From a virus, in IMG/VR virus record IMGVR_UViG_3300020576_003639, positions 1 through 64,000 of that record: 64,000 nt of DNA, one strand, 5' to 3'. The position numbers and the translations under genes were made by a program. The notes beneath the pieces are model-generated. The model was not told where the DNA came from. It saw only the letters and a program-made list of their open reading frames with translations, and did not search any database. Every line of letters starts with the position of its first letter. Positions within the stretch are counted from its first letter, which is position 1. Below, piece after piece: positions 1-64,000 of this stretch.

Positions 1-147
1 GGATCGGACGGAGTATCTCCTACATCTACAGGTGGTACGATAACAACAAGTGGAGGACAGACAATACATACATTCACGACTTCCGGTACATTCACAATGG
101 TAGCCTATACAAATACATTTATTCCAAGAGTCATGATAATAAATTAA
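1..147 (+). CDS. 3' end of a tail-fiber-like gene (partial; the start lies upstream of the window)
   Basis: Frame ends ...SGGQTIHTFTTSGTFTMVAYTNTFIPRVMIIN then TAA. The Thr/Ser/Gly-rich beta-repeat character matches the tail-fiber ORF at the other end of the window. Confidence 0.35.
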   Translation, partial: GSDGVSPTSTGGTITTSGGQTIHTFTTSGTFTMVAYTNTFIPRVMIIN

Positions 148-183
148 AAAAACTTCCTATTTTATCAATAATCGTTATATTCT

Positions 184-348
184 ATGGAGAACTATTCAGG
201 CGTAATTGACATGGCAATAATAGACGAACTTTGACTAGACAGTGCACGAGAATATCTCCGGGAAAAATACTGACACGACTTCGCAGAAGACACAATAAGA
301 ATTATAGAAACGAGGCAGAAAATCATAGAAAGGGATCCAACACTATAA
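184..348 (+). CDS. small hypothetical protein (54 aa, two TGA=Gly)
   Basis: ATG at 184 to TAA at 346 once TGA is read as Gly. Polar composition. No recognised domain. Confidence 0.25.
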
Positions 349-613
349 TTCTATTACATTACCACTTCTGATATGGAGCAAATCATAGCAACGATATTTT
401 CTGAAAAAGGTATCATATACGGTTTATTTGCACTCTCTTTCTTAATTTTACTATTATGAACGCACACAGACTTATAGAGCTTGTAGAAGAGAATCGGGAA
501 ACTGATCTCTTTACATTCGCTAAAATAATCGAACAAGAAGAGCGTGCCTTTATTTCAGATAAAGTTGCAGCTCTTTGATTTCCTGGAATTATTCCTCTTA
601 TTGAAAACAACTA

Positions 614-1339
614 ATGTTACTCTGAAATTATTCAGTCATTCACAAGTCTCCTTGAAAATTCTTAGCAGGTAATACAGTATCAAATGTACCTGCTAATTTT
701 CTGAAGAATGGATCATATAGATGAATCTATTCTGAGGTGAGTATTCCTGATCAATGGGGATTACCTGTAGGGTATTCTTCAGGATGGATGCTTCCAAGAA
801 CTGCGGGATATCTTAAAGGTTATTCAGATAATAATCTAAGTGGAATATGAAACTGAGTAAGTTGAGTAAACGCTACTGGATCAGTAGATATTATTACTAT
901 AGCATTATGAGTTCTTTCTTTGATAGTATCAGCAAATGGTACATGTAGTGTTGTTATTACTGCGACAGGTCAAAGTATCGCTACAATTACTTGATCGGGT
1001 ACAGCTAATATATCATTTTCAGCAAATGGAAGTATTGGTGCAAATGCTTTCCTCTTATGAGCAGGAAGTATTAATGTAAGTGGCCAGGGAAATATATCAG
1101 CATTATGATTTATGACTGGTACGATGACACCATTTACTGAGCTATCGCCTCAATGACTTGCACAGGCAATTTGGTCATCATTAGCAAGTGAAAATAATGA
1201 TCCAAATACGATGGGATCGAAGTTAAATGCTGCAGGATCTTGAGGTATAGATTTAAATGCTCTCGCTCAAGCATTATGGGAATATAATAATAAGCCACTT
1301 ATTCTAAACCTAAATGACAAATTATCGAAAATACTTTAA
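614..1339 (+). CDS. tail-fiber-associated protein (241 aa; Gly/Ser/Thr/Asn-rich)
   Basis: Continuous frame with 11 in-frame TGA, all sitting in glycine-like contexts (SGIGNGVSGVNATGS..., NAAGSGGIDLNALAQALWEY). The C-terminal AIWS...ALW motif pair resembles tail-fiber and assembly proteins. Confidence 0.4.
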
Positions 1340-1399
1340 AAAAAGTTGCATAGAAAACCTTTTGTAGTATACTTTTCTTATACAACTTACTATAATTCT

Positions 1400-1879
1400 A
1401 TGGCGATAATCGAATCTGCTACCGCAAGTGCATGGATCGGATGATTAAAAACAGCTTGATATATTGTTTCAGTTTGAATGTTTGAATATCTTGCTATTCC
1501 TACAGAACAACTTAGCATTCTTGCATTACTTATGTTTATCGACTTCATTACTGGGGTTGGTAAACAATTTCGTATAGATCCTAAGGAGATTACGAGTCAT
1601 CTTGCATGGCTATGAGTCATGAAGAAGATTGCTACACTAGTATCGGTACTCTCAGTAGCTCTTGTTTTCAAAGGATTGAGTATCAATGAACAGAGATATG
1701 TCGTAGGCATTCTTTCTATCTTTATTACTGCTGAAGGATATAGCACTCTACAGAATGTATATGCTATTCGTACTGGTAAGATCCTTCCGGAATTTGATGT
1801 CATATCTATTGTACTTAGAAATATCGGAGATTTCTTCAAACAGAAGATCGAAGATATGGTTAAGAAAGGTAATCAATAA
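1400..1879 (+). CDS. holin (phage_holin_4-like)
   Basis: 159 aa with 2-3 TM segments and the motif LALLMFIDFITGV typical of the LL-H/phi29 holin family. It sits immediately upstream of an amidase endolysin. Confidence 0.6.
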
Positions 1880-1882
1880 TTT

Positions 1883-2578: not shown

Positions 2579-3166
2579 ATGAAAAATATATTTATAAGTT
2601 GTGGTCACAATAATGCTCGCAACTGGATTAAGGATGAAAATGGTAAGTGGGTACTCGGATTATACAAAGATCAATGATCTGTTAATCCTCTTGATAAAGA
2701 ACAAACAGAATATCGATGGGTATCTCGTGTGGCATATTCTCTACAGAAACTAGTAAATACTACTAATCCTCAAAATAATTATTTATTTGTACCAGCATGA
2801 CTCAATCTTGATAGTCGTATCAAATGGATTAATGCCAGGTCAAAGGCTGATGATATATGTATTGAGCTTCATATGAATTCATGAGGCGGTACAGGGCTTG
2901 AAGTATTCGCCCATGCAGGATCAGTTTATGCTATGGAAAAGGCGGCGACTATATCTGCAGGATTATCTAGCTCTATAGGCATAAAGAATCGATGAGCTAA
3001 GGTTGATACTTCTACTAGGCACGGCAAGAATGGACTTGGATTTATCCGAGAGACCAAACCATTAGCATTTCTTATCGAGCTTGGCTTCATTGATAATGAA
3101 ATCGATTGAAATGCTGTATGGGTAAAATGAGCATCATCACTTAAACTTATTCTATGAACACTGTAA
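2579..3166 (+). CDS. endolysin, N-acetylmuramoyl-L-alanine amidase (Amidase_3 type)
   Basis: With TGA=Gly the frame reads MKNIFISCGHNN..., ELHMNSGGGTGLEVF and ...RETKPLAFLIELGFIDNEID. These match the Amidase_3 GHGG, SIHANA and ELGFIsN motifs. Four in-frame TGA. Confidence 0.65.

Positions 3167-6818: not shown

Positions 6819-6819
<1 letters not shown>
6295..6819 (+). CDS. HslV/proteasome-beta-like Ntn hydrolase
   Basis: N-terminus MTTIVYKAGKYIASDKRG (N-terminal Thr, as in HslV MTTIVSVRR...) and a late AAGSGADYV (GSG motif). Confidence 0.45.
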
Positions 6820-7976
<1,157 letters not shown>

Positions 7977-17286: not shown

Positions 17287-18483
17287 ATGAAATTCGAATT
17301 CCCACAAATATCTAAATTTACTCTTACCCTTCTGACACTTATTGTGTTGGGAGGGATTTTTATTGTACTCTTTTATCCAACTGAATCTCGCGTTGCTGCA
17401 AAATGGAATGCTAAGATTCAAGTTCTTTCCACTCAAATTGAGGAGAAAAGAACTGAAAGGATAAAAGCTAGGGAGGACTACTTAAAACTTGATAGCACCC
17501 TATCAGGTGCAATCGTAGACCTCATATCACAGATGAATAGATACGAAGAGTGTAAAGCTAATCTATCTATTTGATGTGATGAAAACAAAAATGTTAAGAT
17601 GATCCCATCTGTAAGCGCAGCTGAAGAAACAAATACTACCTGAACGGTCACACCTGCCATTACAGGTGTACCCTTATGAACTTGAGATCAAGACATTCAG
17701 ATAAAAAAAGAATGTGAACTCTGAGTTCGAGGGGGTAAGGTAGAATGAATTGAATTCCACTACACTGCATCTCAATCCTGAACTACTCTTACATCTATCA
17801 AGGCTAGCCATGAAGATAAATATGGTATCGATCATATCGGATATCATTATGTCATCAAGGCTAACGGAGAGATTACGAGTACTCGGGATGAGAAATGTGT
17901 AGCTGCTGCTGACAAATGGCATAAGAATAACTATAGGTTTATTCAAGTAGCTTTCGTTGGAGATGATAAACCAACTGAAGCTCAGACAAAATCTATGGTT
18001 GAATTAACTAAGGCTATTCAATTTAGATACAAGCTCCCGATCGATAGTGTCTCATCGCATCAAGAATGGGGGCCTAAATCTGAGAAAGAGAATCTCATAT
18101 ACTGGTATGGAAGCAAGGCTAACTTCATTAAGAAGATTAGAGAATCACAGTCTATCACGATATACGGTAAGGATATTAAAGCCTTATCGTATGCGTGGGA
18201 GGCTTGGTGAGATATTGATTTCATCGCTACAGTATGGCAAGAGTCTCGCTTTGATTGATGAGCTATTGGAGATGGATGAGATGCTCATTGATTCTGTCAG
18301 ATTAATAAAGCTCAGAATCCTGGATGGCATCGTGAGTACAATGCATTCAAGACATGGCAAGAGCGGATGAATTACTGTCATGAACTGTATACATATGCTG
18401 CATCTTTGCCTTGATGAGTTGGCTCTAGGTTTCACGGATATAATGTTCGCAAGAAACATATACCTTTTATTTCTATAAAGTAA
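17287..18483 (+). CDS. membrane-anchored peptidoglycan hydrolase: Amidase_2 (PGRP/T7-lysozyme-like) domain + lytic transglycosylase (SLT/GH23-like) domain
   Basis: N-terminal TM segment. FHYTAS...GYHYVI...NNYRFIQVAFVGD...SSHQEWGPKSEK matches Amidase_2. C-terminal WQESRFDGGAIGDGGDAHGFCQIN matches the SLT ES...GxxQI motif. About 25 TGA=Gly. Confidence 0.6.
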
Positions 18484-28126: not shown

Positions 28127-28702
28127 TTAATATTTCCAAATAAATAATCATGCAGTTTTCTGCCCTCATCTTGCACACCTAGAAATTCAAGATCAATGTA
28201 TTCATAAAAATTCTCATGCTTCATAAGCTGATCAGTATGTCTTGATTAGATTTCAATTTAAATCATATTGAGATACATTTTTTGATGTTGGATGATTTGA
28301 TCATTTTTTTCATTCCCAAAATTTTGGATGTTTAGTTTGAAATATATTATTAGCAACTCAATGCTTATATTGATCTAATACATTTGAACTTCTAGTACCA
28401 TATCTCAAGTTATCAGGATGATTATTTTTTGGATTACCATCATTATGACAAACTTCCATTCATTTAGGGCAAGGTCATTCTTTTATAAGCATAACTATTT
28501 GATGAATTCAAAATGATTTTGATAATCAATGTTTATATAATGCAGTTTGCATGTGTCATGATTTTCAAATTCATAATGACATTATTTTAACTTTTCAATT
28601 GTATAAACTTCTGATCTGATTAGTAGAAATTTTTATTTCATAAATCCAATCATATCATGGAATTTTTATCCAAGAATCAACATCTATTGTTTTTCGCTTC
28701 AT
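28127..28702 (-). CDS. HNH homing endonuclease (NUMOD4 + HNH_3)
   Basis: MKRKTIDVDSWIKIPGYDWIYEIKISTNQIRS...GHMQTALYKHG...IHQIVML...EVCHNDGNPKNNHPDNLRYGT...GISRCARGGQKTAGLFIWKY. About 17 TGA=Gly. Confidence 0.65.
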
Positions 28703-40700: not shown

Positions 40701-43700
40701 GTTACAAAGATTACTGGTACAAAAAATATATTCTATGTATCTTTTGGAAAAGATATTGCTTCATCTGAAGTATTTGCCAAAAAACTCGATGGGAATCCTA
40801 AAGGAACATGAGCTACCGTTACTGCATATATCGCAAGCGCATCAAGTATCAACAAGCTTATTGTGAAATATGGCATTCAATCGGATTGATCTATTGATTT
40901 TTTCAAAGGGTTACAGAAGGCAAAGATTGTAGAATCTACAGCTAATGTAGATGGACTATTTATCGATTGAAAAATATCTCAATCAGCTATTGCAAAAATA
41001 CTTGATGATGCTATCAAGTGAGAAGATATGGATGATCTTACTAGAAAATGAATTCTTGACCTTGCTAATGGTCTATTCTCGGCATCAAGGCAAGAGGACT
41101 CTATGGTAATTAAGCCAATGATATATTCTCTAGTATCAAAATACTATGATAATAAGCCACTTATTGACGAGTTATTCACAAGATTCAGAATAGATAAGCC
41201 AGACTTCATCAAGGCATTTGCTGATATATTGATGAGTCCTGATACGTATAAAGACATTGCAGCGAAGATGGCATCTCGATGAGATCAAAAAGTTCTTACG
41301 GAATCATTCAGAGTAAAACATCAGCAAGCTTGGCTCGAGTATCATAATAGGCTTCAGTCTATTGTGGATAAACTTGATATCCAGATTGATGATGCTAAAG
41401 CCACGCGTAAGCTCACTGGATCAGCTGAGGCTCGAGAATTTATCGACATGAATATTGAAACTCTCAAGTCCAAAAAGTCTTCAGTACTCAAGGTAATGAA
41501 GAAAGAACAGGAGTTCAAGAATAATCTTCTCGAGAAAAATCTCCAAAATATCAATGTGGAATACTTGAAAAATATCTCTAATGATTTTTCTTTTACGAAA
41601 CTTCTTCGTAGAGAAAACCTAATAGGCAAAGGAAATCCAGAAGACCAACTCAAACAATATGTCTCAATGCGAGAACAGATCAAAGATCTCTATCCAAAGC
41701 ATAGAGATGTCTTTGATAGTCTCATTAGAGATATTGAGAAAGTCACTGATCCTATGGCTACTATGGCCGATCGTGCTAATCTTATCCAGAAATATGAGGA
41801 TATGGCGTTCTCATCTGATATTCTGAAGGATACCGTAGACAAGATGATTAGGCAGTATCTGTTTCCCCAGGATGGTATTTCTCTATACGATGTATCATAT
41901 CTCAGTAATATGATTGATTCGATGAAGGGAAAATACACTTATAATTTTGCCAAAGAAAATAACCCACTCAAGAAATGGTTATGAGGATGGATCAATAATA
42001 CGAACACCGGTCGTAATGATGTACTCGAGGCAAAGATCTCTGAGTATTTCAAAGAACCAACAGTCAAATCTGCTGATGAGATGTATGATAAGAATCCAGA
42101 GTTCAGAGATATGATTGATAGCCTTCGAGCTCAATCATCTTCAGAATGAGATGTAGATGTTCCAAAAGTCTATGTTAAGGCTATTCGTGATGGAAAAGAA
42201 TCTGTTCGAAAATTTATCTCTGAGATATTTCATAACATCGAGATAGATACCGATAGTCGTTGAAATATTAGCGCTGAGCTAGTGGATGACATATTAAATG
42301 AGTATGACATCATCAAGAAGCTTAAAGCCATCGCAAATCGCAAATTATCGAAGAATGATATCAATGTGTCGCTCATAGAGTGAGAAACAGAATTCGATAA
42401 GGTATTTTCAATCCGCAATGATAAGTACAATGAGAAGGTTCTTCAGATAGAAAACATGGAGAAAGCATGAATGAACTTCAGAGCTATCCGTGGATTTTCT
42501 GTAAACCAAGCATGATATATTAAAATTGGGGATACTACTCTCAACAAACTCTACGACCAGCATATAGTAGATTCTTTCATCAAAGATAAAGAGAATCCAA
42601 ATTTTGCTTACTCTACATCTTCAGAGAAGTATAAGCTTCTTACTAAGATTATAAATAATACCTTATCTGCTGAAGATTATAAAATATTAAATATTCAATG
42701 ATGAAAAGAGACAGTATCGTTAAATAAAATTAAAAATTTAATTGCTAAAAATGATAAGGAATTACTTACTAAGTATTTATCATTATCAAATAAAAAGTCA
42801 GACTCAATTGAATGAATCGTAGATTATATATCTTCTGATCTTAGATCTTGGATATTTGATTGAGATTGAACACTTAAAGAAAATATAAAAGCTAATTTAT
42901 CTGAAAAACAAATAGAGCAAAATTATAATACTTTTAAATCAAATTATTGAGAATGAAATAAGGATTTATTTGATTTTGAAGTATCTCTTATTAAGAAAAT
43001 ATATGAGAATATTGATTCTATAATTCAAGTAGAATGATCAGTTATTGATCGGAAATCAATTATTTCTCAGCTTGGAATCCCTGAGGATCATGTATTCGTA
43101 GGAAACTTTGGTGATAAAGATTCTCTCTACACTACTTACAAATCTGGTCTTGATATCTATACTGGTAAGGTTATTCCGGAAATAGAGGCATCCATCTACA
43201 AATATGAGTATGCTTTTGCTAATGGATATACTACTGGTAAGATGGAAAGTTTTGAACAATTCAAAAACAAGTTTCTTACAAAAAAGTTCTCTTCGTTCGA
43301 AGAATATAAGAACTATATGCATGATAATGTTTATGAAACTGTCAATGGAAAACGAGTGAACCAGTATATTCTTCCTCGTGATACTATCCGTAAGAGAGAG
43401 GCATTCAACATGAGTAACGATACTACTTTCGAGGATTATGTTGTGCCTACAAAGACTTATATCATCGAGAAGGAACTCAAGCAAATACCAGAACTCCAAA
43501 ATTTCCCTATGGTAAATGGAGAGTTTGATGGTGGAATAGATGATCTCATGAAACTTATCTCCGACTATCCTGAAAGTGAGGTAGCTACAGTTGTCCAAAA
43601 GAATTTGGATAACAATGTCTCAGTAGAGAAGATTATAAACTTTCTGAACACGACCTACAACAATGATCTTCAGGATGGTACTTCATTCGTATCCAATGAT

Positions 43701-46700
43701 CTCGCGAGAACTCGTGCATTTATACAGTGAGGGAACCGTGGGGTAAAAGATTTTGATGAAGGAAAACGACAATTCAAGGATCATTACTATGGAGATCTCT
43801 GAAACAAAAGATTTTGAGCAAAGACTTTGTTCAATGCTTCAGATATTCAGTTTGAATGAGCTCCTATCAAAAATGCTGTAGTCGTTGGTGATTCATCAAT
43901 GAAGCTCAAGGGTGGATACAAGAAGTATGATGAGCCGAAGGAGATCATGATCGATGGCAAGATGCATAAAGTTCTCGGGGAAGTGGAAGGAACCAATACT
44001 TCATTCTTCAAGAATGCAGCAAGTGATTCATTCAAAGACCATTCAGATCTCACGATGAGTGATTCTATCAAGGGTAGGATACCTGTAGAGCACGCAAAGG
44101 CTATTGAGCAACTTCAGATCCGTGATATAAAGCTCGCATTCCAGGAGGCCCTTTGAAGTCTTTCTGACTATAAGATATCTCTGAATTCCTTTGGAGATGT
44201 TACGGAACTTATCAAACTTATCAGTTCAGAGGCTAAGATTGGTATGGGTGCTGATGCAATAGTGAAGGGGAAGATGACAGATCTTCTCGTCAAGATTGAC
44301 GGTATTATCAACAAGCCAAAGAATCCAGGACAATCTATGTTCATCCGAGAATCGAATCTCGATATCGGTCGAAATGAAGTTATCATGAGTAAGGACTCGA
44401 GTTTCGTTATTCAGGCTCGTAAGGAAATTCAGGATGAGATCGATAAGCTCGATCCAAATACTGATGTAGAGAAGATCGCAGAGCTCAAGAAAGACATGAA
44501 GGATGGTCTATACACGGTAGGATACCGATATCCGGTTCCATCTATCTACAATCTTGGAGTATATAAGATCCGTATCCAAGAAGATCTTGATCCAAAAATA
44601 TTTGGACAGTACAAGAACATGGGTAAGGATCAGGTTATTACACATCCACTCACCACGTATATGAAGCTCGAGGGAGATAATGACGGTGACCACGTCTTCT
44701 TCTTATCTGCGAGATGAGAGATGGGTAAGATACTTTCCAATGCTGTTCTTTGAAAAAAACCAACAGAAGAAATCATTCCTATCCTCAAGTCAGGAAACTG
44801 GGATAATAAGTTTATCGTGGCAGAACAGGTTGAGAAGGGCATAGTCAATGACTCTGAGGATGTATCTCTCCTCGATTCTCGATCGATAGCACTTGAGGCA
44901 AAGGCTTCTATCGGTGTAGTATCGGCTACTCTACGTACTCTCGGTACACTGAGTCAGATGATGTGAGATTCGCTGAATGATGATAAGAAACTATTTTTCC
45001 AGGAGATTATTCCTTCTGAATCTGGGAAGGCAAAATCTTCTAATAGTGTGAAGACTCTCAAATTTATCAAGGATAAGATCGGTGACCTATCTTCAATAAA
45101 GAACAATCCAGAATTTGATGCACTTGCTGCATCGATTCTTCAGACAACTCTCGACTTTGGTAACTCAGGAAAGACAACATTTGACAAGGATTGGTATATG
45201 GATCTTTTGGAAAAGGTATGAATACCTCGAGAAAAGATTCCTGATATATACTACTCTATCATCTCCCCATTATCTATTGGGTACAATAAGACTGACATCA
45301 AACAAGGATACAAGCTTTGACTTGCTACGTTTGCACCTTCGTATAAAAAAGATCTCCTCTATTGAGTTACTGGTTCAAAAAGAGATATCTATGAGTTTCT
45401 TCTTGAGGGAGAAGTGTACAATAAGCGATCGATAGCTCAATTTGTAAATGATGTGAACAAGACTCATGATCTCAAATTCATCACAGATACATTGATGTCA
45501 TCATCAAAGGATATCAATGTGAAAGCAATTATCGATTATATGAATAAAGAGATCAAGAACTTCTCTACTCTTGGTTATATCAAGAAAGAGTACCGTGGTG
45601 ATTTCAAAAAATTCATAGGATCTCTTGGACATTCAGATCAGGTTCTGGAAACAATGAAAATGATAGATGACTATCATGAGATCCAAGATAACTACCTGGC
45701 AAAGAAAGAAATCAGTAAGAATCTTATTTCAAAAGTAAATAGTTTGAGCCCTGATGAGCGTGCTATAGCTGCACTATATGGTGCAGCTAATGGGGAAAGT
45801 AATCTATTCAATTACTTCACTACTCCTGAGAAACTTCTTTATCTCACGTCATCTGATCAGACATTTGTAAAAGATATAGGATCAGTATATGGAATAAAAC
45901 TTCCAAAAGATTCTCTTGATTATTGATCATTTAAAGATGAGATCATAAAAAATATATCAGATCTTACTAATGATCTGAAGTGAGAAAAGGATGAGTGAGC
46001 AATAGATGCAATCGAGTATAATCTCGAGAAACAGAAAGCAGCACTCAGCGATATCGATCAGCTTATTACAGATCTCGAGGCTAAGAAGGATATTCCTGAT
46101 GACATTGTGATAGATGAAGTCAAGATCCCAGAAGTATGAGAAGTCGTGTTTCCAGAGTTCACATTTGCAGAACTCGATACATCTCCACAATCCGCTAATG
46201 AAATTCTTTCAGAGCATGTCGATATGGTAACGCTCGCTAGAGATTGATGGAAGCTCACTATGCAAAGCATGTTCAATAAGTATAGTCCTCGATTGGCTCT
46301 CAATTTTGATACATTGGCAGACTTCCTCAATGCCAAGAATAGGGTTCTATCGAATGCTAGTAACGAACATGTCCGTCAGTTCGGTGATCTATTCTTTGGA
46401 TACAAAAATTCTATATACCGACAACTCAAGAAAGCATGAGTTCCTAAAGAGAAGCTCGATCGTTTAGGTCTTGTTATTCAACACTCTCTGATTGGTAATG
46501 CTGGTGGAGTATTCCATTGAATGGAACAGGATGTAATCATCAAGAAGCTTACTGGTACTCTCGAGGAATATGGTGTAGGTCATCTTATCAATGATCCAAA
46601 ATTTATGGATGAGATCTTTGACTACAATGATAAGGTAATATCTGTAGCAGTAGAGAAGCTTAATCAGATTCAAGAATCATTTCACTTCGATATCTACAAT

Positions 46701-49700
46701 TCGTATAAGGATCTCGATCTCTCTATGATCACAGATCTCTTCGAGGCTCATAAGTGAGATGCACAGTTTGCCCTTAAGCTCACTGGTATTAAAGATCGAC
46801 AAGCATTCGAGAAATACATAATGGATAATGCAGCACAGATGGGGGAAAAACCATTGGAAGCAACAGTCAGATCAATGGGGAATGCGGTATATAAGAATCA
46901 TAGTGGTATGGACTTCGTATTGAACTTTGTGAAATGAGTTCATTACGAGATGACATATGGAACCGCAGCAACATTACTCACTCAGAATAATATAGTTGCC
47001 GGCCTTACTCAGATTCTTCCAAATTATACAGAGCTCCGATCGTTTATTGATAAAGATCCTTCTGCTATACGAGAATGACTTTATGTAATGTCGAGATATA
47101 ATCTCCTCGACGCTGAAGATGTACTGCAAATGGGTACATGATTCTGAAAGAATATGAAGAATACTTGGCTCGGATGAGTAATCCAGAAAGCAACGAAAGA
47201 TCTCACAGAGGGAACACTATCTGCAGTTTGAGTTACGAAGAATAAAGCTATACGAGCATCAGAGTTCGTTGATTCCGTAATGAACAATATGCTTGGATTC
47301 AATGACTGGCCGCTTGAGAATCTTCGTAAGATAGTCGCTACCAAGAAAGCAATGGATCAGCTATGATATAAAACTGCGAAAGAACTAGAGGATGCAATAG
47401 AAAGAGGGTGATTAGATTTTGAGATGGCATTCAGATCACATGTAAGAAGAAACTTTGCCAATACTGGATGATGAGTAGTGTCATCTTCCCCAATTGCGTC
47501 AGGAACAGTATTCGAAAATTCATATGAATACTTGAGAACAGGAATAGTCCCAGTAGACTTCTTCGTAGAATTTGGTGTGAAGTCCCTCTGATATCTTATG
47601 TGATGGTCATTTCATAAGTCGGCTACTCTCTTAGAGAAAGAATCAGCATTATTCACATGATTAAAGAAGCTTGTCATAGACAAAGATCCTAGAGCATTCA
47701 AGGCACACTTCAGTGATTGGGCTGCATATAACCTCATGTTGGGAAGACAGGTAGGAACAACAATGGGTCTCTATCTTAAATTCCAGAAATATGAGAAAGA
47801 TAATGATGATCGTATATCTTTGGCATCATTTCAGAAACAGTTCAATAATGCTTTTGTAGCAATACTAATTCCTCTCGAACGACATTTCGCAGCATTCGAA
47901 ACTGCTGAAAAACTTGGGACTGGATCAGATGCAACCCTCTATACCATGAATAGTGTCTTCAAACAGATGACTCGTCTATTCAAACAATGAGCGTTCTTCA
48001 ATACAATGTTTGATCGTTATAGGGAGAAAGAGGCATTAGGTGAAGCAGATATGCTTGATGCAATGCAATATGCAATGGATGTTCATTATACTGCATATAT
48101 GAGATTCTCTGGGATGCAGACTACCAATGATTATTATAACACCCTTGGACAGCAAACTAATCTTGGAATCTTATGAGTAGGTGGTAATACACTTCAAGAT
48201 GATATTGCAAAAGAATTGATGGAATGAAGTACCTTTACATCTTGGAAAGAAAAATGATTCATCTGAAGTCTTCTATCAGGATTCAGTCAAATGTTTAGGA
48301 CATCGGATACAGATCTCTCAATGAGCGTAGCACAGGATCTTGCAAAAGAGATTCGTGATAGAGTCACTCGTGATCCACAGTTATCAAAACTTCTTAAAGG
48401 ATGACAGATTGGTACTGGAATACAGGACTATAATATCACTAATCTTGTAGGAAATAACAAGATAATGTCTCCTGAGGAAGAATGAGCTACATCAGATATA
48501 TGGAAAGAAATTCAGTACTATGCCTATAAGAGCATCGATAAAGATGGAAAGCTTAAGGTGTACGGATCTGATGGAAAACTTATTGTCCAGGACAAGATTC
48601 AACAGATTCTCGAAGAGAGAATCACCAAGGAGCTGGCAAAGAAATGAATCAATATTTCTGATATCATTGCTAGATGACCTGGTTACGATCCAGCTCTTTT
48701 GAAAACTATTGCAGTACTAGGTCTTGATTCAGAGCTTAAGACTCCGCTAGTGATTGCAACTCTTATGGAAATGGAGAATAAGAAGCTCAATGCAGATAGA
48801 AAGAAGACGGAGTGAGTTCTCACCGGTGAGAAGTCGGCATATGGAACTCCATATAAAACTCTTACAACAGAACAGTATATCCGATCTCAGCGAGATATTA
48901 TTCTGAAGTACCAAGAATACTTCAATCTTGATAATAATCTAGTGCAGTCCATCATAGAGAAACACATTGCCAAGAATAATGTTGATCTTTTCGAGAAGTT
49001 CGATAAGGTGACAAATCTTAAATTTATCAAGAACGATGTATACGATCTGGTGAAGAGAGAGTATCTAGCTAGAAGTGTTATGAATAACTGAGATACGAAG
49101 GTTTCATCACTTCAGAGTAGATACGCTCTTGCATATAAGGGAATAAAAGATTCAGAGACATGAGTACAAGTTGTACTTAATCATCTCAGAGAAATTGAAT
49201 CGCTTCCTGCTATGGATGCTAAGACGAAGCTCGCGAATCAAGCAGCAGCTCTTATGAGCCTTAATACAACTCAATACGGATTACTCAAGAATAATAAAGA
49301 GTTTGCTAAACTTACGGAAGATTCTCAGAAGCAAATTACCAATTGGTTATTCAAAGTATCATCAGCAAGTCTTGATTTTGATAGCAATACAATGGCATCA
49401 AAAATGAATCAGGCTGCATGATCTCGTCAGGCCACTGGTAAATGATATGCAAGAGTTCTTCCTAAGCCTCAAAGCTCATCATTCTCATGACAGAGACCAA
49501 ACTTTTCTCAGCAGTTTTCTCCTATTAGAGATTTCATTCCTGGAAAGGAGAAATATCTTTCTTCTGATCCGAATAGATTTCTACAGGCAAAACAAGATTT
49601 TATTCCTCGGAATAATCTCTTTAATCCTGCGCAATTCCCAATCGTTCAGGAGTATGCAAAAATTATGATTAGTAACATATACTACGGTTATGAATCAAAA

Positions 49701-49877
49701 GGAACTATTCGCACTGGTTCTTGAGATAAAAAGTTTGATAAAACTCAGAATACGAGTATAAAGATAGCGAAACCAAAGAAAGCCAAAGCCACAAAAGAAT
49801 TTAAAAAATTCAAGATAGCTCCAAAAGTATCTATGTGAATGCGGCCGGATCTTCCACTCGCTAACTATTGAGACTAA
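37719..49877 (+). CDS. giant protein (about 4052 aa) with a multisubunit-RNAP beta-prime-like DPBB catalytic domain (DxDGD). Candidate crAss-like virion RNA polymerase / giant virion protein.
   Basis: Twelve track ORFs all in phase 0. The gap 39122-39972 was verified codon by codon: nine TGA and no TAA/TAG. Frame-0 stops are at 37701 (TAA) and 49875 (TAA). The region near 44520-44700 reads YRYPVPSIYNLGVYKIRIQ...GKDQVITHPLTTYMKLEGDNDGDHVFF. This parallels beta-prime NRAPTLHRLGIQAF...[26 protein letters not shown]. Confidence 0.7.
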
Positions 49878-50222: not shown

Positions 50223-52286
50223 ATGATCAGTTTATCTGAGTTTACGAATGCACATCTCTCGTATAAATCAAATGAAGATTACAAGAAGTTTCTTGGATCG
50301 TTTGTTGTTGATCGATGAGTACTAAAAAATAGTAAGAAACTATTCTATACTGATGCAGATCTTCAGGTATATGATGTGTTTCGTGTACTTGATGAATCTT
50401 ATTTCAAGAAGTTCAAACCATTTGAATTCAAGAAGATCGAGTTCAACTATGATAAAGGAATGATTAAAGAGTTCTTTGATAACAAACCTTTTACTCTTGA
50501 ACTTCCTATATGTCGAGATGGAAAAGACATCACCGATAACTTCATTCAGCATTTTATCGGTCCTATGGCCAAGGAACGAATGATTGATGATATTCTCTTT
50601 AGTATCATTAAGACCATCTGTTACTCATTATGAGTCTATTACAATGTAAAGACTGGAACAATCTGATTCTGAACTACGAATAGGAAATCAGTTGTAGGAA
50701 AATGAAGCGAAAGAACTTCAGTATCTATTACTGAGATCAATCTCGAAGATGTTCTTCTCGCAGAAATTCGACAGGGATATATCAATCATAAGATTGGCGA
50801 CAAAGATAGACAGTATGCTTATTCTCATATGCTTCGCGCACATGGAAAATTTAAGCTATTCAACTGGGCCAAGAAGGTTACACTTCAATGGACCAAGTAT
50901 AATATCATTGCAGCCTCTCGTACTCAGGGAAAGACATACTTCTGTTCAGAAGTAGCTGCACGAGAACTATTAAAAGAATGAACTGGATTTTGATGAAGAC
51001 CATATAGAGAAATCAAATACTTTGTACCTGATAAAAGTAATATTGGTGATCAGGCCATGACCTATATCGAATCATTACTCGGAGATCTTCTTGAGAAAAA
51101 GATCGATGGTAAGATGGCATTTGAGATTAATCGAGCCAAACAGGTCATTAAGTGTAATATTACCGGGAATATATTCAAGGTAGTATCACTTTATAATCTT
51201 GATCGATGAGATCCTGAACTTGGTAACTCAACTGGTGAAGGTATCGCCTGTGACTTTGCTATCGTAGATGAGGCAGCTCGTATTCCTGATTCATTTTGGA
51301 TATCATTCCATCAGCGTGCTGCATTCGAAACAGATACATTCCTTATCGTTACTACTATCAATAAGGAAACTCCTGTGGATCATTGGTTCTATAGGCTTCT
51401 TATCGATGGGGAAATGGGTAATCCACTTATAACATCATATCGTCTTACAGTAGATGATAACGAAGCCATGAGACAATGAAAGACTGAAGAGCAATTTCAA
51501 GTTCAGCTTGAACAGGTTAAGAATGCACTTCGAGCATGAGGTGATCGTGAGTTCTATGCTAAGGGATATTGTATGATTCTCGAGGAATCAAACATCTTCA
51601 ATACTGGAACATATCTCTCAGCTCCATCTACATCAAGTATAGACTATAATGATCCGAGAATCCTTGGATTCGATCTTGGTAAGCTTACTGATACCTGTGG
51701 ATTAGTGCTTATCAATCTTCGTACTCGTAAGATTGAAATAGCTGATAAGGTACTTAATGCAAGTTATGGTACTCAGCTTCAGTATGCTAAAGAATTCAAG
51801 GAGAAATATAAACATCTTCTTGTTATTTGAGATCGAACCTGAGTAGGGGAAGCAGTATCGGAGCAAGATGTAGAGTGAGTCGTAGATTGTTGGATTAAAT
51901 CTACAGGAGCCGGAGAGCTTTCATATAATAAACAATTCTGATTTTATACCTGTAACAAGGGAAAGATCATTAACACTCTCGCTACTGTATTCAATTCAAA
52001 CATTCTTAAGATATCTTCAGATCTCGGAGATCTTATCGATCAGTTGAACAACTTCGTAAAGATGAAGTCTGCTCGGGGTGAGGTTATTCTCTATAAGGGA
52101 AAATGAAAAAAGAAAGATGATCTTGTATTATCTGCAGCTTACGCAGTGATTTATATGTATCTTATTCTTGGACTAAAGTCCATTGCGGATATCGAAAACT
52201 ATGTAAATGAAACTTGCGAAATGCAAACCTACCAATACAATGATACTCAAGAGTCGGAATCTAATTATCATAACTGATTATACTAA
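50223..52286 (+). CDS. terL: terminase large subunit. The ORF is open from 50223 (688 aa). The core may start at ATG 50829 (486 aa).
   Basis: Walker A IIAASRTQGKTYF, Walker B FAIVDEAARI, nuclease domain ILGFDLGKLTDTCGLVLI. No TAA/TAG between 50223 and 52284. Confidence 0.7.
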
Positions 52287-54301
52287 TGGAAAATAATCTT
52301 ATCACTACTTGAGAAACTACTTTTTCTCCTGAAGATAAAAAACATCTTGATGATGTTAAGCAGGTAATCTATTCCACGATGATGGAATTTCATAATTATG
52401 ATTTCCCAAAATATATTCAGAACTACAAAAAGTATCTTGGCTTTGTGGCTGATCGTATGAAGGATCTTGATCCTTGGCAATCAAATGTTAGCTACCCTCT
52501 TGTAGCATCGACTATCGACACTATGTTCGGTAATCTTTTTGATTTCGGATATGAGTTTGGAATCAATGAATCAAAACTTAAGAAGGCTTGTAATGAGGCT
52601 TTTGATTTCCGAGGATCAGGTAGATCTACTTTTAAAGAAGTTACAAAGGAAGCTCTTATCTGTGGTAAGGCTTATGCAAAAGATTATCTTATCAAAGAAA
52701 CAAAGAAAGATACATTCTTCAATAAAGACATTACTACTGAGATTAAGACTCCATCAATGCATTATGTTTCAGTATTTGATGTGATGTATGATCGATCTCG
52801 AGGATTAACTGAATCACCATTCAAGATCATTCGAACCTTTACTACTGGTGAATCTATTAAGCAGAAAGTTCTTCCGCTTATTCTTCAGTCATATCCTACT
52901 GAAAGACATAAAGAGGTAAGAAAAAAGTTTGATGGTCTTCTTAAAACATATAAAGATAGTCCTGGATCTCGATTTAGTATGTATGATTATAATCCTGTAA
53001 AGTCTCTTACAGCTACTACTCAATACTATAATAGTAAGGCAGGAGATATGAACTATGTTCTTCCTCATTGTGAAAAGAGAGAAGGACTTCTTGCATGATA
53101 TACTGCCGATGGAACCCTCGGACAAAATGCAGAGAAGAATAATTATTTTCTTTCAGCAAATCAGTCAAACTATGAGCTTGTAGAATATACAACTTGTGAT
53201 GAGAAAATTATCTATATCAATGGTAATGTTATCTATAAAGGTCCTAAGCCTTTTTCTATATGAGATATTCATGAAATTAATTACTCAATGATCCCTGGTA
53301 CTGGTAATGCGAATGGTGTAGCAGATGATCTTGGAAATCTTCAAGACATCAATGAGTCTCTTTGGAATGCGTTCATTGATAACATCAAACTTATCCTTGG
53401 ACCTATGTTTGCTGTATCAGGTAATCTTCCTATAGGAAAGAGTGGAACTATTGACTTCAAGAAATTTAAAGCTATTCGTACAAACGGACAATCTTCTATT
53501 GAGAAGATTCAATTAGGTGTCACAGACTTTGCTCCTATCAACTTTATGCAAATGACTGAAGGCCTCGCTGAGAAGCGTTCTGCTACTGGTAACTATATTA
53601 CCGGTGGTGGTGGTTCAATCGAGCGTGTATCAGGCGGTATTGATATGAAGTTCAATCAATATAAATCTAAACTTTCTCCTATCACCGATAGTATCGATCA
53701 GATGATGGGGAACATCGCTCGTAACTGGGTATTCATGTTCTTTAAATTCTATACGAAAGAAGAGCTTGAATCTATGGATATCATAGTTGAAGAAGTTACT
53801 AATCCTGATACCAATGGAGTAGAGAAGTTTGATACCTTCACCGTTAATAAGATTGATATCAGAAAGATTATTGATGAGCGACAAATCACATTTACCTACA
53901 ACTCTCTTGATAAACTTACCAAGGAGAATAGTCGTAAAACAATTATGGAATCTCTTCCTGCTATGCTTCAATATGTTGCAGGTCAGGTGAATATGAAAGA
54001 GCTTATTAAAGTTCTTGCATGACAAGACTTTGATCCAGATCAAATCATCAAAGAGCAAAAAGAACCTGGTGCGTATGGATGAAATGATCAAGTTGCTCTC
54101 GGAGATAATTCTTGATATAATACACAGAAGGGGGAAAGCGATTGGAAGTATGATAAGCCTTATATGAAATGATCAAGTCAATTCATGCCTAAGGCCCCCT
54201 ATAATCCTCAGGATACATGAGCTGAGCCTGCTGCACCTGTAGATCAAACACAATTGTCAGATGAACAATTAATTGCTGAATTATCTAAAGTAACTGCTTA
54301 A
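52286..54301 (+). CDS. portal protein (candidate; 671 aa)
   Basis: Immediately downstream of terL. Three track ORFs in one phase joined via TGA. Acidic, Gly-rich C-terminus. Confidence 0.5.
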
Positions 54302-55413: not shown

Positions 55414-56751
55414 ATGGCTGATGCTGTTGGTACTACTGGTACCGTGGACTGAGTCCTAAATGTCGTTACATCTAAGGGAATCCAAACAATCAACGCTTGG
55501 ATCCGCGATTTTCCTGCCCTCATGTATGTTGGTATGAATCTTCAAAACATGTTCAAAGATGGAGGAACTCTCAAACGAGGTGGTCTTTCATTCGCTGATC
55601 AGCAATCTCTTAAGTTTAAGAATATCGGTTCTCTTGAAGCTGATATGTCAGTAACTAAGAATGAAGTAAAATGGTACGAAGTTGGAGCATTCGCTGATAG
55701 CGCGCTCATTACTGAGGCTAATGCATCTGCAGATACTACTGTTAAGGTAGCACTCGCTGATCTTGATATCTTCAATGTTGGTGACGTTGTTGCTATTCGT
55801 GCTAAGTCAGGAGGTACAACTCCTAATGCTCAAGCAGAAATTTCTTCTATCAATACTAGTACTGGACAGATTACTCTCGATACTGCAGTTGTTACTGCTG
55901 TCGGTGATTCAATCATGTTTGCTTACAACCTTATTACTCATAAGGCTGAAATCGATCGTACTGTAAATGGTACAAATCAAACTCCTGTTACTACTTACTT
56001 CCAAAAGTTTGGTGGTTCAGTTGAATTCGATTCTCAGGATCTCAATGTTACTCGTCTTCTTACAGACGCACAGGAGTATGTTAAGGGTAAATTTGCTGTT
56101 ACGATTAATCTCGCCAACAACACATTCGCTCGAACATTCTACCTTGGTCGTAATATTTCAGGTACTAAGAGTGAGACTCAGGGTCTTGATGCACTCATTA
56201 CTGAGAAGGCAGTTCGTGATGGATCTGCAAATGTAATCATTGACTTTACTGGTGTGACTGTTGCTAAGGATAAGGCTAAACTTCTTGTTAGGACTCTTAA
56301 CGAAGCTTCTTCTGCTCCTGTCTATGTTGGTGGTGAAGTTCCTACAGTTTACTGTAACTACGCATTCATCGATGCTCTCTCTGAGATCCTCTATGATATG
56401 GGTAACTTCTATACTCTTAAGGATAAGGAAATCGAATTTGGGCTTACTCAATATTCTTCTCCTTACTTCAAGAATGTACAGTTCATTGTTGATACTGTCC
56501 TCAATAATCTTGAGCAATATCAGTCAGTTGCTTACGTCTTCCCTAAGCATCTCGTTACATTCAAGACTCCTGAGTACCAATCAGTAAATGAATCTGGTGC
56601 GCTCGTTAAGTCTTCAATGGGTGGATATACAGTTCTTAAGATGCCTCAAACATCTGTAGACTTCGTTAAGTATACTGCACAAATGACTATGGCCAATGTT
56701 TTCGCAGGTCAAACATTCAAGAATACTTATAAAAAGATCATCGGATTCTAG
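55414..56751 (+). CDS. major capsid protein
   Basis: 445 aa after scaffold. Only one TGA, at codon 13. Strong terminator downstream. Confidence 0.6.
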
Positions 56752-59906: not shown

Positions 59907-59917
59907 TTTTTACTTTT

Positions 59918-61396
59918 ATGTCTAATAATAATGATATATCATTTTGGGATTGAACAAAATATGCCTGAGAACTTATTGCTAATGCAGGTATCTGAGTTTG
60001 AAAATGAGTAGTAGATCTTGCTGATCTATGATGAGATGTCTTAGCATTTTGAACTGATCTTGCTACTAATGCAGCTGCAGATCTAACTGGAAAAGACTGG
60101 CTTAGAACATCATTATCTGCTAATGAATGACTTATGGATATGACATGAGATCATTTAAATAAATGATTTGATCAAATGAAAGATGCAGTAAGAACAAAAA
60201 TTTGAGAAACAAAAGGTTGAAAGTTTTGAGCTGAAGCAGCATGATTTGTTTGAGAACTATTTGCTCCTGCATGAATAATTAATAAATGAGGTAAAGCTAT
60301 CTCTAACTGAGTTGAATGAACTAAAATACTTGTTGGTGAATTAAAGAAAATTCCATGAGCATTTGAAGAAGTTAAAAAATTAATGAGCTCATGAAAAAAA
60401 GCTAGTGATCCTGAAGTTATGCAGCTTATTTCTAAATATGTTCCAACTGAAAGATTCCAAAGAATTCAAGATTATTTGATTTGAAAAGCTGATGATGTCA
60501 TTGATTTTCAATGACTTCCTAAAAATCTTTCATGAGATCAATTATCTGTTATGCAGAATGCTGCTGAAAATTTAAAGAACTGAAAACTTGCTACAGAAGT
60601 AGATTGATTTTTACAACTTCCTCAAGATGTTCAAAAATATATACTTAAAGAAAATGGTGCAATTTCTAGTGTTGCATGAAAAGCAGATGAAGCTACATCA
60701 TCATTTATAAAATGAGGTAAAACTCCTGAAGAATTTAAAGCAGGAAGAGCTGCAAGAATGGAAGAAAGTTCAACAGATAATATGTTTGATTTTCCAAAAT
60801 GAAAAACTGCAGAAGAGTTTACTGCATGAAGGGCAAAGTCATTGCAAGATATTGAAAATGCTTCAGAGGAAGTTCTTACTGATCCTGAATCATTAAACGC
60901 TATTGAAAAATGAAAATCAATTTTATCAAGATATTCACCACAGGCATTAAAGGAGCTATTAGATAAATATCCAAAACTTAAAACATGATCTAAACTTGCT
61001 TTAGCAATTTGATTAAATCATGTTGCAGAGATCTCAAATGAAGATGCTCCAATTGATTCTGGAATAACATTACCTAAAGCTGATGCTAATAATAATAGTA
61101 ATATTAAAAATGATTCTAAAACGGAAGAGCCTAAAACAATTTCAGATAAAAAGAAAGAACTTGAAATCATGAAAGAAAAAAATGCAGGAACACTTAATGC
61201 AAGTACTTCAGTAGTTGATCTTATGAAAATGTTATGAGCAAATTCCACTATGGAAGCTCGTAAGATGTTATATGAAAAGATCACTTCAAAACCATATGAA
61301 GGTACTGCTGAACAAAATATACAACTTAAAGATCTTGTAGAAGAGATGTTTGCAAAATGAACTTTAAGTGATGCAATACAACCTATTAAACGATAA
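59918..61396 (+). CDS. tape-measure-like / tail protein (492 aa; about 36 TGA=Gly)
   Basis: AGIGVGKGVVDLADLGGDVLAFGTDLATNAAADLTGKDW... GxxxG-rich N-terminus, helical Lys/Glu-rich remainder. Confidence 0.45.
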
Positions 61397-61407
61397 CCTT
61401 TCTTTCT

Positions 61408-62931
61408 ATGTGAATCCCTTCATTTCAAGTATCGGTTGATAAGGCACTAGCTTCAGGTAAAAGTCCTGATGCTATGCGCAAGGCTCTTGAAAACAATCCT
61501 AATAATAGTGTTGTTCAAAAAAACGCTCTAGCTTATCTCAATACACTTCACCCTGTTGTAGCAAAACTTCCTGATGCTACAACAGGGGTTTATACTAAAC
61601 AGAATGCAGACAATGTCTGATCATCTATTGGTACAAATAGTATTACAAATCCTAGTAAGCCTAATGATTATTCTATTGGTGAAACCTCATCTACAAACTC
61701 AGGAGTAGATCGTTTAAATGCTACTATGAATCAATATGAAGCTAATGCTAAGAAGACTGCAGCTGATACTGAAGCTAATGCTCGTAAGTTCGGACAAGAG
61801 GCTTCTAATGTTACATCTCAACGAGATGCTGAGAAACTTATTCGTACAGCTAATCAAGAAGCTGAACTCAAAGATATTCAGAATACTCGAAAGACTAATA
61901 TAGATCTTCGTAGAAAAGATGCTGATACTCTTCTTAAGAAACAAGATGAGATCGCAGCTATGAACTCTAACATTGCTATGGCTGATGCAGGTAAGTCAGG
62001 ACTCCAACTCTCTCAAGGAGACCTCACTACAATTCAGAATGATATTATGAGTAAGTATGCTACCAACATAGCCAATGCTATGGACTTCAAGAACAAGACT
62101 AATATGACTCTTGATGAAGCCCTTACGAATACAGGACTTTCTATCTTCTCTAAGCAATCTGAAATAGATACATTCAAGAATGCTATTCAAGATGCTAAGT
62201 ACGCGCCTATCCTTGATGCAATCAATAAAGCTGCAGCAGGTAATCAGAAGGCTATTGATGATGTCAATACTTTTTACCAAACAATGACTCAAAAGAAAGT
62301 TGACTCTGAATTTACTGGAGCAAACATTGAAGAGATCATCTCTACTAAAGAGAAATCATTTCAAGAAGCTTCTGCACAAAAGAAAGAGAATCTTATCGCT
62401 GAAGATCTCAAGGATGTTCCATGAGCAAATTATATTATTTCTCAGATCGCTACAGTTATCAATAGATATCCTGGAAAGAGTAGAACATTTATCATGGGAG
62501 AGCTTGCTAATATGGCTATGGCCAAGAGTGATGCTCAAGCACAGATGATTCAATCTATAGCACAAGGGAAACAGGTCTCATCTGAGATTAAAAAACTTGC
62601 AGATAGTCAGACTGCCAATGCATTAGATTCAGGTACTCAAACAGTTTCAGGTAAAACAACTCAAGAAGGAATTCTTGAAGCAGCCAATCCTGCTAAGGTT
62701 AATAATACAGTAGTTCCATTTGTTCCACCTACACCTACTGGATATCAGTTATCTGATGCTAATAAGATATTTATTAGCAATGCAGTTAAGGCAGGTACAG
62801 CTGTAACTCTTCAAAATGTTAAGAATCTTTTAAAGGAAAGATTAAGTAAAGGGACAATACGACAAGATCAATTTGATGCAGTATCAAATGCAATTGCAGC
62901 ACAGAAACCTATATGGAATACTTTAAAATAA
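61408..62931 (+). CDS. tail protein (coiled-coil, Ala/Gln/Asn-rich; tape-measure or baseplate-hub candidate)
   Basis: 507 aa. ORFs 61726 and 62494 are in phase. Confidence 0.45.
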
Positions 62932-62932
62932 T

Positions 62933-64000
62933 ATGAGTATTCTCACTAGCACACAGGATTACAATCCGCTCACCTGAGACATACAGTTAAACCCAGCGGC
63001 TTGGTGACTATCATTAAAGGATATCAACTCGGCCGCTTCTGTCGAATTGAAGTCTTCACTCTATAGTGGGAATCTTAATCTTACAGCAGATCAATATCGA
63101 GAAGTTCAAAGTCTAGTGGCTGATAAATATTCAGCAATAGATGTAAGTGGTATCATAGCTCCTGGTGCAATCACAAAAGATTGAGAACTTGCAGGAGGAA
63201 TAGATATGACTTGAAAAGATCCAGGGCTCTATATGAGTAATGATCGATTATGATTCTATGATGGTACGGCTTGGCAAGTATGGATAGGAAACAATGGTGA
63301 TTTCTTTTTTGGATGAGATGCTAGTAACTATATAGAATGGTCTGGTAGTACACTGACAGTGAAGTGAGACATTGAAGTGGCAGATGGTAGCATAACAGCT
63401 CCAAAACTTGCAGCAAGCTTACTTTATGCCTGAGAAATCGTTATAGATACTTCAGGTAAAATTAGATCAGGGCAAACAGCTTATGATACTGGTACATGAT
63501 TTTGGATATGAGATGTAAGTTGAGTAAAGAAATTCTCAATAGGTAATGGAACTAAGTGACTTAAATGGGATGGAAGTGATCTTACTATTCGTGGTAATAT
63601 TTATGCAGAAAGTGGTACATTTACTGGGTCTATTACATCTACAGCTACAATTACATGAGGTATATTACAATCTGCTACAACTTGAAAACGTATTGTAATA
63701 GAAAGTAATACATTTAAATCTTATGATTCCTCTAATGTACTAAGAGTTCAGACTGCAAATGAGTGAATGCGAATAACAGATACTACATGAGCCTATTATG
63801 CTGATTTCTCTACTAGATCATTTAGTGGACCATGAGCTATTGAATGGCCATACATTCTTGTATCTGATACTAGTACACCATCAACTAGAGTTTGATTAAG
63901 AACATCATTTTTAGCAGGGCATCCATCAGCTACTGATAAATCTCTTTCAATATATTTAGACTGAGCCAGCTGATGAATGATTACATTTAGATCTATTTGA
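62933..64000 (+). CDS. tail fiber protein (partial; continues past the window end)
   Basis: With TGA=Gly: ...GFWIGDVSGVKKFSIGNGTKGLKWDGSDLTIRGNIYAESGTFTGSITSTATITGGILQSATTGKRIVIESNTF... At least 23 in-frame TGA. Confidence 0.6.

Follow-up and report, generated by a model that had tools for sequence, protein, structure and literature searches.

Phages and prophages with dense in-frame TGA codons, assigned to genetic code 25 (TGA = glycine) and with predicted hosts among the Absconditabacteria and Gracilibacteria, were described in the preprint of Borges et al. (2021) and by Liu et al. (2023, mBio), and the recoding of TGA to glycine in phages is in itself already known. About 90% of the genes of code-25 phages were found to be recoded, compared with 26-71% in recoded phages whose hosts have the standard code (Borges et al. 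2021), and dense TGA use was attributed to codon optimisation in code-25 hosts, in which TGA is also highly used as a glycine codon by the cell (Liu et al. 2023). The DNA examined here comprises positions 1 to 64,000 of the IMG/VR virus record IMGVR_UViG_3300020576_003639 (the whole 64,000 bp stretch, with 35.0% guanine plus cytosine (GC), is referred to as the window), for which an initial annotation, made from the letters alone, had proposed code 25. It is nearly all of the genome of a tailed phage from a new lineage, in which TGA is, on the evidence of alignments, a glycine codon, and we put at roughly 85% the probability that its host is a UGA = Gly member of the Patescibacteria, from the Gracilibacteria/Absconditabacteria group, and that the code is supplied by that host. 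As in the published code-25 phages and prophages, TGA is dense in nearly all genes and aligns to glycine, annotation with code 11 is nearly impossible, and the same code is attributed to the host.

Treating TGA as a stop, as the standard code does, leaves 72 stop-to-stop open reading frames (ORFs) of at least 100 aa in the window, amounting to 10,800 aa, the longest of 432 and only one of at least 300 aa. With TGA as a sense codon there are 188 such ORFs (39,721 aa summed, the longest 4,057, and 23 of at least 300 aa), while almost nothing was gained by making TAG or TAA sense instead (longest 437 and 432). The frame at 37704-49877 has 4,057 codons with 94 in-frame TGA and zero TAA or TAG, which is impossible by chance. 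At least one in-frame TGA is present in every one of the 68 curated ORFs, and the gene stops are TAA (n = 61) and TAG (n = 15). TGA is a sense codon in the window, as the initial annotation had claimed in stating that the DNA decodes only in this way, and TAA and TAG are the only terminators. The features on which the following argument draws are these:

1..64000, no strand: near-complete tailed phage genome with TGA = Gly and stops TAA/TAG only (ORF statistics; contig sizes of relatives)
2579..3166, plus strand: Amidase_3 endolysin (Pfam; PlyPSA in the PDB, E = 4e-12)
6819..7976, plus strand: PIF1-family helicase with 11 in-frame TGAs (PIF1 matches in the PDB, E = 7.6e-54)
6876..6899, plus strand: PIF1 P-loop G-K-A-TGA-T-TGA-K-S, with TGAs at 6885-6887 and 6891-6893 (direct reading)
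28127..28702, minus strand: HNH/NUMOD homing endonuclease in which 20/23 Gly codons are TGA (Pfam set HNH_3, NUMOD1, NUMOD4)
35076..36812, plus strand: primase-helicase (Toprim + DnaB_C) with 18 TGAs (Pfam)
37719..49877, plus strand: giant ORF of 4,052 aa with 94 TGAs and a DNDGD motif (ORF reading, orthologue comparison)
50223..52286, plus strand: large terminase subunit (TerL), 687 aa, 17 TGAs (five-orthologue profile against the PDB)
52286..54301, plus strand: probable portal protein (position between the TerL and capsid genes)

The gene list was obtained by greedy ORF picking followed by a codon-usage score filter, in which about nine antisense artefacts were dropped; the antisense ORFs at 20058-20942(-), 26807-27358(+) and 31947-32480(+) were discarded as spurious by this score. 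Once TGA is read as sense, antisense ORFs as long as 513 codons open as well (42966-44507(-), 15195-16229(-) and again 20058-20942(-)), whose codon-usage scores are negative; genes at these positions were rejected as artefacts, and they are a pitfall for code 25 or code 4 gene callers. Standard-code annotation, in turn, leaves fragments, and gene callers and databases mishandle this genome.

The alignments indicate that the amino acid read at TGA is glycine, not tryptophan. The PIF1 helicase, which has 6,422 database homologues, was aligned with 66 distant standard-code homologues, including named ones from ordinary bacteria. The columns of its TGA codons contained G in 66/66 at residues 23, 25 and 123, in 60/66 at residue 248 and in 62/66 at residue 266; G was the most frequent residue in the column of residue 58, the other TGAs fell in variable columns, and W was found in none, whereas the columns of the three TGG codons were W in 66/66, W in 55/66, or aliphatic/aromatic (L, F, Y, I). 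The residue alignment to solved PIF1 structures agrees with glycine. These results bear out the earlier proposal that TGA stands at invariant glycines of the PIF1 P-loop, motif Ia and motif III (FGG), including the two TGAs of the P-loop GKAGTGKS, although that loop had been placed at 6879-6902, and it begins one codon earlier.

Similar patterns were seen in proteins compared with solved structures, i.e., the TGA in the 'NR-TGA-AK' of the Amidase_3 endolysin was opposite G in 3/3 solved PlyPSA-type homologues, 6/10 aligned TGAs of the homing endonuclease at 28127-28702(-) were opposite G in I-HmuI (1u3e) and 0 opposite W, and 3/4 aligned TGAs of TerL were opposite G in solved nuclease domains, again with 0 opposite W. 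For the primase-helicase, 58/60 matches were themselves recoded; at its TGA columns the relatives have TGA (shown as W by the database) or G. At residue 368, a TGA in the window, the same column has G in 25 and TGA in 20 of the relatives, and G and A in the sole two standard-code homologues. The initial annotation had taken this TGA as the first glycine of Walker A; it precedes AYSGHGKS by one residue and supplies the G in a P-loop of the GAxxxxGKS type, so that, strictly speaking, Walker A does not begin with it.

A further line of evidence, codon exchange, was obtained by threading the DNA codons of relatives through protein alignments of the window with seven related loci. Where TGA was opposite a different codon (n = 555), the partner was GGN in 283 cases, TGG in 2 and a Cys codon in 2, and the remainder fell on Ser, Ala, Asp, Asn and Lys, the residues that commonly replace glycine; TGG, in the same set, was opposite TGG (82%) or Tyr/Phe. 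In five TerL orthologues that range from 27 to 50% GC, the sum of TGA and GGN was 52, 53, 56, 55 and 54, with TGG at 4-6, while TGA made up 17, 11, 6, 43 and 44 of these codons. The TGA share of TerL glycine codons thus runs from 11% to 81%, rising with falling GC, and by this comparison TGA simply takes the place of GGN as GC drops. At TGA-bearing columns the other orthologues show GGN 117 times in TerL and 116 times in the portal protein, and TGG is absent from the eight commonest partner classes. Other amino acids were considered and rejected: selenocysteine, given 542 TGAs and a tRNA(UCA) that is not of the Sec type; cysteine, the other residue with a U73 discriminator, given only 2 Cys among the 555 exchanges; and arginine, which was excluded by codon exchange with relatives.

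The window has three tRNA genes:

31466..31540, minus strand: tRNA-Cys(GCA) (ARAGORN, Rfam; absent in the close relative L011)
32599..32673, minus strand: tRNA(UCA) with Gly identity elements and encoded CCA (ARAGORN; Rfam tRNA, 55.5 bits)
32836..32911, minus strand: tRNA-Met(CAU) (ARAGORN, Rfam; conserved in L011, L014 and L015)

The tRNA(UCA) is an ordinary 75-nt cloverleaf with G1:C72, C2:G71, G3:C70 and discriminator U73, and the 'SeC' label given to it by ARAGORN mirrors the anticodon alone. These elements are the Gly-acceptor rule formulated by Shulgina and Eddy for the tRNA(UCA) of Absconditabacteria and Gracilibacteria, their provisional Trp-acceptor rule being G73. Judged by its identity elements, the tRNA is probably charged with glycine by glycyl-tRNA synthetase (GlyRS). 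The initial annotation was correct in the anticodon, the Gly identity elements and the exact coordinates of this gene, which lies on the minus strand and conforms to the published rule. The window shares with the code 25 used by the cells of Absconditabacteria (SR1) and Gracilibacteria the reading of UGA as Gly, the same tRNA-Gly(UCA) identity elements and a high use of TGA, which is its commonest glycine codon (39% of Gly codons).

The distribution of the tRNA(UCA) gene differs from that of the recoding itself, and from the published code-25 phages the window differs in carrying a tRNA-Gly(UCA) that is lacking in the collinear region of close relatives. The gene is missing from that region in L011, L014 and L015 (primase identity 80-89%), which retain the tRNA-Met there, and it is present within a different tRNA set in the more distant L012; all four are recoded as much as the window. 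In the collinear region of the relatives, the tRNA(UCA) is thus dispensable and not fixed in the genome plan. The tRNA sets vary: the window has Cys, UCA and Met, L011 and L014 have just Met, L015 has Leu, Leu, Ser, Gln, Pro, Tyr and Met, and UCA, Gln, Tyr and Leu are found in L012, whose tRNA(UCA) has A3:U70 instead of G3:C70.

TGA is not confined to any class of genes. The modules and genes relevant here, in addition to those above, are:

3969-4547, plus strand: HNH/NUMOD homing endonuclease (Pfam set HNH_3, NUMOD1, NUMOD4)
13450-13974, plus strand: HNH/NUMOD homing endonuclease (same Pfam set)
25779-26528, minus strand: HNH/NUMOD homing endonuclease (same Pfam set)
56854-57453, plus strand: fifth homing endonuclease, HNH-type (motif only; no Pfam match)
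30532..31442, minus strand: HU-like, Tad2-like and Acb2/Tad1-like proteins, each with TGA (Pfam Bac_DNA_binding, 6e-14; Tad2-like, 1e-18; Acb2_Tad1_hairpin, 1e-7)
32156-32581, minus strand: WDGH-family protein (in the minus-strand cluster beside the tRNAs)
55414..56751, plus strand: major capsid protein, predicted HK97 fold, 1 TGA among 34 Gly codons (AlphaFold2 and Foldseek)

The density of TGA is 2.3-4.0 per 100 codons in all modules (lysis, plus-strand replication, minus-strand cluster, giant gene, and packaging/head/tail), and the minus-strand cluster (HU, Tad2-like, Acb2/Tad1-like, tRNAs) is the richest at 4.0, with no bias to late genes. Stop-recoded phages whose hosts have the standard code (TAG = Gln, code 15, or TGA = Trp, code 4; crAss-like phages, Lak phages and related clades) resemble the window in having an in-frame stop as sense, a suppressor-type tRNA and low GC, but in those phages 26-71% of genes are recoded, with a late or lysis bias and often with release factor or aminoacyl-tRNA synthetase genes (Borges et al., Liu et al.), whereas in the window the figure is 100%, without late bias, and the amino acid is Gly. 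Two earlier claims therefore hold, that early genes are recoded as well as late ones (68/68 ORFs, at similar density per module), and that this is unlike the late-gene recoding that times lysis, given that there is no late or lysis enrichment and the early genes are unreadable in the standard code. On what can be tested in the sequence, the window belongs with the code-25 phages and falls outside the code 4 and lysis-timing classes.

The TGA share of glycine codons is nonetheless uneven across genes (chi-square 234.7, 37 degrees of freedom). The capsid gene has a share of 3%, and 4/5 capsid orthologues have 0-1 TGA even where TerL has about 80%; in the five homing endonuclease genes the share is 0.85 pooled and 74-94% individually. 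This contrast between capsid and homing endonucleases may reflect expression level or different origin. A separate observation concerns the TGA at 52274-52276, three codons before the TerL stop (N-TGA-L-Y-stop), which is TGA in 5/5 orthologues, including the TGA-poor L016; by a rough estimate (about 0.25 such columns expected) this conservation is within chance.

The assignment of the element to the tailed phages is secure, as it has an HK97-fold capsid, a TerL nuclease domain, a holin, two amidases and relatives assembled as contigs of about 66 kb with varying start points, in agreement with the initial annotation's description of it as a phage. Besides the genes already listed, this involves:

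1400..1879, plus strand: holin (Pfam Phage_holin_4_1, E = 5e-7)
17287..18483, plus strand: Amidase_2-domain protein (Pfam, E = 1e-13)

An AlphaFold2 model of the product of 55414-56751, built from 70 sequences (predicted local distance difference test score (pLDDT) 78), identifies it as the HK97-fold major capsid protein by prediction: Foldseek against the PDB returned 226 chains at E <= 1e-3, the top matches listed were all capsid or encapsulin shells, and the best was the Vibrio phage VP1 capsid (9in6, E = 5.8e-14), with phicrAss001 among the best. TerL, searched as a single sequence, had no Pfam match (none of use even at E <= 10) and in PHROGs only the uncharacterised phrog_27743 (E = 3.9e-6), but the call of a terminase at 50223-52286 in the initial annotation was vindicated by a profile of five orthologues, which matches the solved TerL nuclease domains 5m1q, 5m1f and 5tge (E = 2e-7). 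Its ATPase domain is suggested by the Walker A-like QGKT and Walker B-like VDEA motifs in the sequence. The portal candidate at 52286-54301 had a sub-threshold match to SU10_portal (E = 0.0085). No known-function family was matched in PHROGs by the TerL, portal, capsid, tail and other proteins, another difference from the published code-25 phages.

As to how the code would work in the infected cell, we propose that UGA is decoded as glycine by tRNA-Gly(UCA), with UGG as the sole Trp codon and UAA and UAG as the sole stops. TGA occurs in all modules, including the genes that are probably immediate-early and directed against host defences; with TGA in every gene and module, phage translation would from the first minute need a cell that already reads UGA as Gly and has no UGA-specific termination. 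The phage tRNA-Gly(UCA) would then be an accessory gene, most likely topping up the supply for the most-used glycine codon and not the source of the code. Since the tRNA(UCA) is absent from the collinear region of equally recoded relatives and TGA is similarly dense in all modules, the host itself most likely decodes UGA as Gly. This had been stated in the initial annotation and is still something we infer, albeit on better grounds now that the gene is known to be missing from that region in three close relatives.

Several points count against this view of the host. A scan of GTDB genomes gave no direct host link, its one match being to a metagenome-assembled genome (MAG) titled only 'bacterium', and environmental co-occurrence rests on sample names and one table of Absconditabacterales from glacier-fed streams. 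The window has its own tRNA(UCA), which can be made without translation, so that suppression driven by the phage is compatible with the sequence, and position 36 of this tRNA is A, not the canonical C36 of tRNA-Gly. Lastly, the relatives that lack the gene are partly covered, about 38/69 kb at best, and a tRNA(UCA) elsewhere in them is possible. As to habitat, the relatives seem to come in part from cold freshwater or glacier-fed streams, to judge by sample names, and Absconditabacterales MAGs have been recorded in glacier-fed stream biofilms.

Other explanations for the window have to be set against this. That TGA is Trp (code 4), in a Mycoplasma-like host or a phage recoded to TGA = Trp, is how the whole family was translated in the public protein database (entries P0001-P0054 and P0134-P0191, e.g., with the P-loop 'GKAWTWKS'), and it would suit the low GC and the fact that, in the recoded phages published so far, TGA has more often been reassigned to Trp (Borges et al.). 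It is nevertheless vanishingly improbable, for W is at no TGA column of the 66 standard-code PIF1 homologues, TGA is opposite TGG in the 2/555 exchanges mentioned although the codons are one transition apart, and in the tRNA there is U73 with G1:C72 instead of the Trp-acceptor G73. Composition points the same way: of window residues, GGN encodes 4.3%, TGA 2.8% and TGG 1.0%, so that code 25 yields 7.0% Gly and code 4 yields 3.7% Trp, which was judged implausible, and some relatives' primases under code 4 would have 9% Trp and 0.7% Gly. The initial preference for code 25 over code 4 is hence upheld by homologue columns, codon exchange, composition and the tRNA identity rule, with one of its arguments withdrawn: low GC does not discriminate, because codes 25 and 4 are both found in low-GC lineages and the relative L016, at 50% GC, also has TGA = Gly. 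The code 4 entries, with Trp at each TGA glycine, will distort profile building and composition statistics.

A second alternative accepts TGA = Gly but has the phage impose it on a standard-code host through its own early tRNA(UCA), as in recoded phages of Bacteroidota and Firmicutes. The gene does lie in the minus-strand cluster with probable early genes, and there is ample documentation of recoded phages that infect standard-code hosts and carry suppressor tRNAs (Liu et al., Borges et al.), and yet no phage-autonomous case of TGA = Gly is found in Borges et al. (2021) or Liu et al. (2023). Furthermore, TGA is in 68/68 ORFs without late enrichment and is densest in that very cluster, three close relatives have no tRNA(UCA) in the collinear region, and Pfam scans of most window ORFs found no release factor or aminoacyl-tRNA synthetase gene, RF1 and GlyRS included. 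Standard GlyRS also uses C36 as an identity element, and this counts against an imposed code, which we consider very unlikely. About as unlikely is that the window is an integrated prophage or other chromosomal or plasmid segment of a code-25 bacterium, even though code-25 prophages with dense TGA have been described (Liu et al.) and a related 15 kb contig, the sole match in a scan of GTDB genomes, lies within a bacterial MAG. The relatives are stand-alone contigs of 63-69 kb, near-identical contigs of 65.6-65.9 kb begin at different points between assemblies, Pfam scans of most ORFs found no bacterial housekeeping gene or integrase, and the window contains the complete set of genes for packaging, head, tail and lysis. 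The varying start points speak for a genome of about 66 kb that is circular or circularly permuted, and the window covers nearly all of it.

The preferred reading, a phage of a UGA = Gly host, can be refined by the arginine codons. Shulgina and Eddy predicted that in Absconditabacteria CGA and CGG are both Trp and rarely used (CGA at fewer than 37 per 10,000 codons), and that in some Gracilibacteria this applies to CGG only. The window differs from the Absconditabacteria in having CGA at 73 per 10,000 codons (TGG 97), opposite Arg or Lys codons in relatives and never opposite TGG, and its rare CGG also behaves as Arg. A host with CGA = Trp would mistranslate 134 window positions, and the host is therefore more likely to be from a UGA = Gly lineage without the second reassignment; going by codon use, it has probably not also reassigned CGA/CGG. 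The host type named in the initial annotation thus stands as to the UGA = Gly group, with CGA/CGG = Arg fitting a Gracilibacteria-type host better than Absconditabacteria with CGA/CGG = Trp.

A different pattern was found in distant relatives, in which CGG or CGA stands where Trp is expected; this signature has to date been reported for no groups other than Absconditabacteria and some Gracilibacteria. The TerL of L018 has CGG where four orthologues have TGG, and the primase of L013 has its single CGG in a column that is W in 43/60 other aligned sequences. Twelve distant primase homologues have R in one, two or all of three true-Trp columns (21 R, 0 K). Among the low-GC distant relatives with CGG and/or CGA at conserved Trp positions are the primase homologues P0156, P0167-P0171 and P0177-P0187. 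In the IMG/VR relatives L019 (9/14) and L020 (7/13) the pair counts place CGA opposite TGG, and those of L021 do so for CGG (7/20), although all these counts are small and not independent. It is conceivable, if somewhat short of an even bet, that the phage family tracks host code variants, with CGA/CGG = Arg in the window and its close relatives and CGG/CGA = Trp in the low-GC L013, L018-L021 and about twelve primase homologues. If true, these would be the first phages seen with CGG/CGA = Trp, they would tie the wider family to Absconditabacteria-type hosts, and they would provide a codon marker for assigning members of one family to hosts with different codes. A full-text search of a literature collection found no report of CGG/CGA = Trp in phages; Shulgina and Eddy did note phages adapted to AGG = Met.

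The family to which the window belongs includes at least 77 capsid relatives and spans 22-50% GC, with TGA use inverse to GC. Unlike the published code-25 phages, it has no spacer-based host assignment and was unmatched both in GenBank phages, searched with 12 kb of DNA and, by tblastn, with TerL and the capsid protein, and in IMG/VR, searched with the capsid protein. This tailed phage lineage is new and uncatalogued in reference phage collections, and it is well sampled. At the upper end of the GC range, L016 (an SRR11476867 contig of 65 kb) has 50% GC and TGA = Gly, with 6/56 TerL glycine codons being TGA, and uses CGG heavily as Arg. Very few viruses have been linked to UGA = Gly Patescibacteria, which are uncultured hosts with poorly known phages, and the lineage, when correctly decoded, adds to their number. 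Its members form a natural series in which TGA goes from 11% to about 80-90% of glycine codons with falling GC, useful for the study of how viruses track host code change, and the possible second reassignment, of a sense codon, would be likewise useful if true.

The giant ORF, which sits directly upstream of TerL, is a conserved feature of the family, with lengths of 3,900-4,500 aa. Its invariant DNDGD motif and the flanks are conserved in the 27%-identical orthologue L012, within the most conserved stretch, and the DNDGD region had no PDB sequence match and no useful Pfam match at E <= 10. The DxDGD-type motif is reminiscent of the virion RNA polymerase of crAss-like phages, and a two-barrel RNA-polymerase-like role of the giant protein would be no more than a guess, which no search supported. 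The capsid fold and the presence of a giant ORF are also likenesses to the Crassvirales, from which the window differs in having no sequence similarity to GenBank phages (tblastn), a genome of about 66 kb and a giant gene in the position just given. The primase-helicase had no match in a PDB sequence search, and an SPFH protein and an ArdC-N protein were also found to be encoded (Pfam scans). In the minus-strand cluster beside the tRNAs are the genes for the Tad2-like (anti-Thoeris) and Acb2/Tad1-like (cyclic-nucleotide sponge) proteins, and by their sequence these suggest a host lineage that carries Thoeris- or CBASS-type defences.

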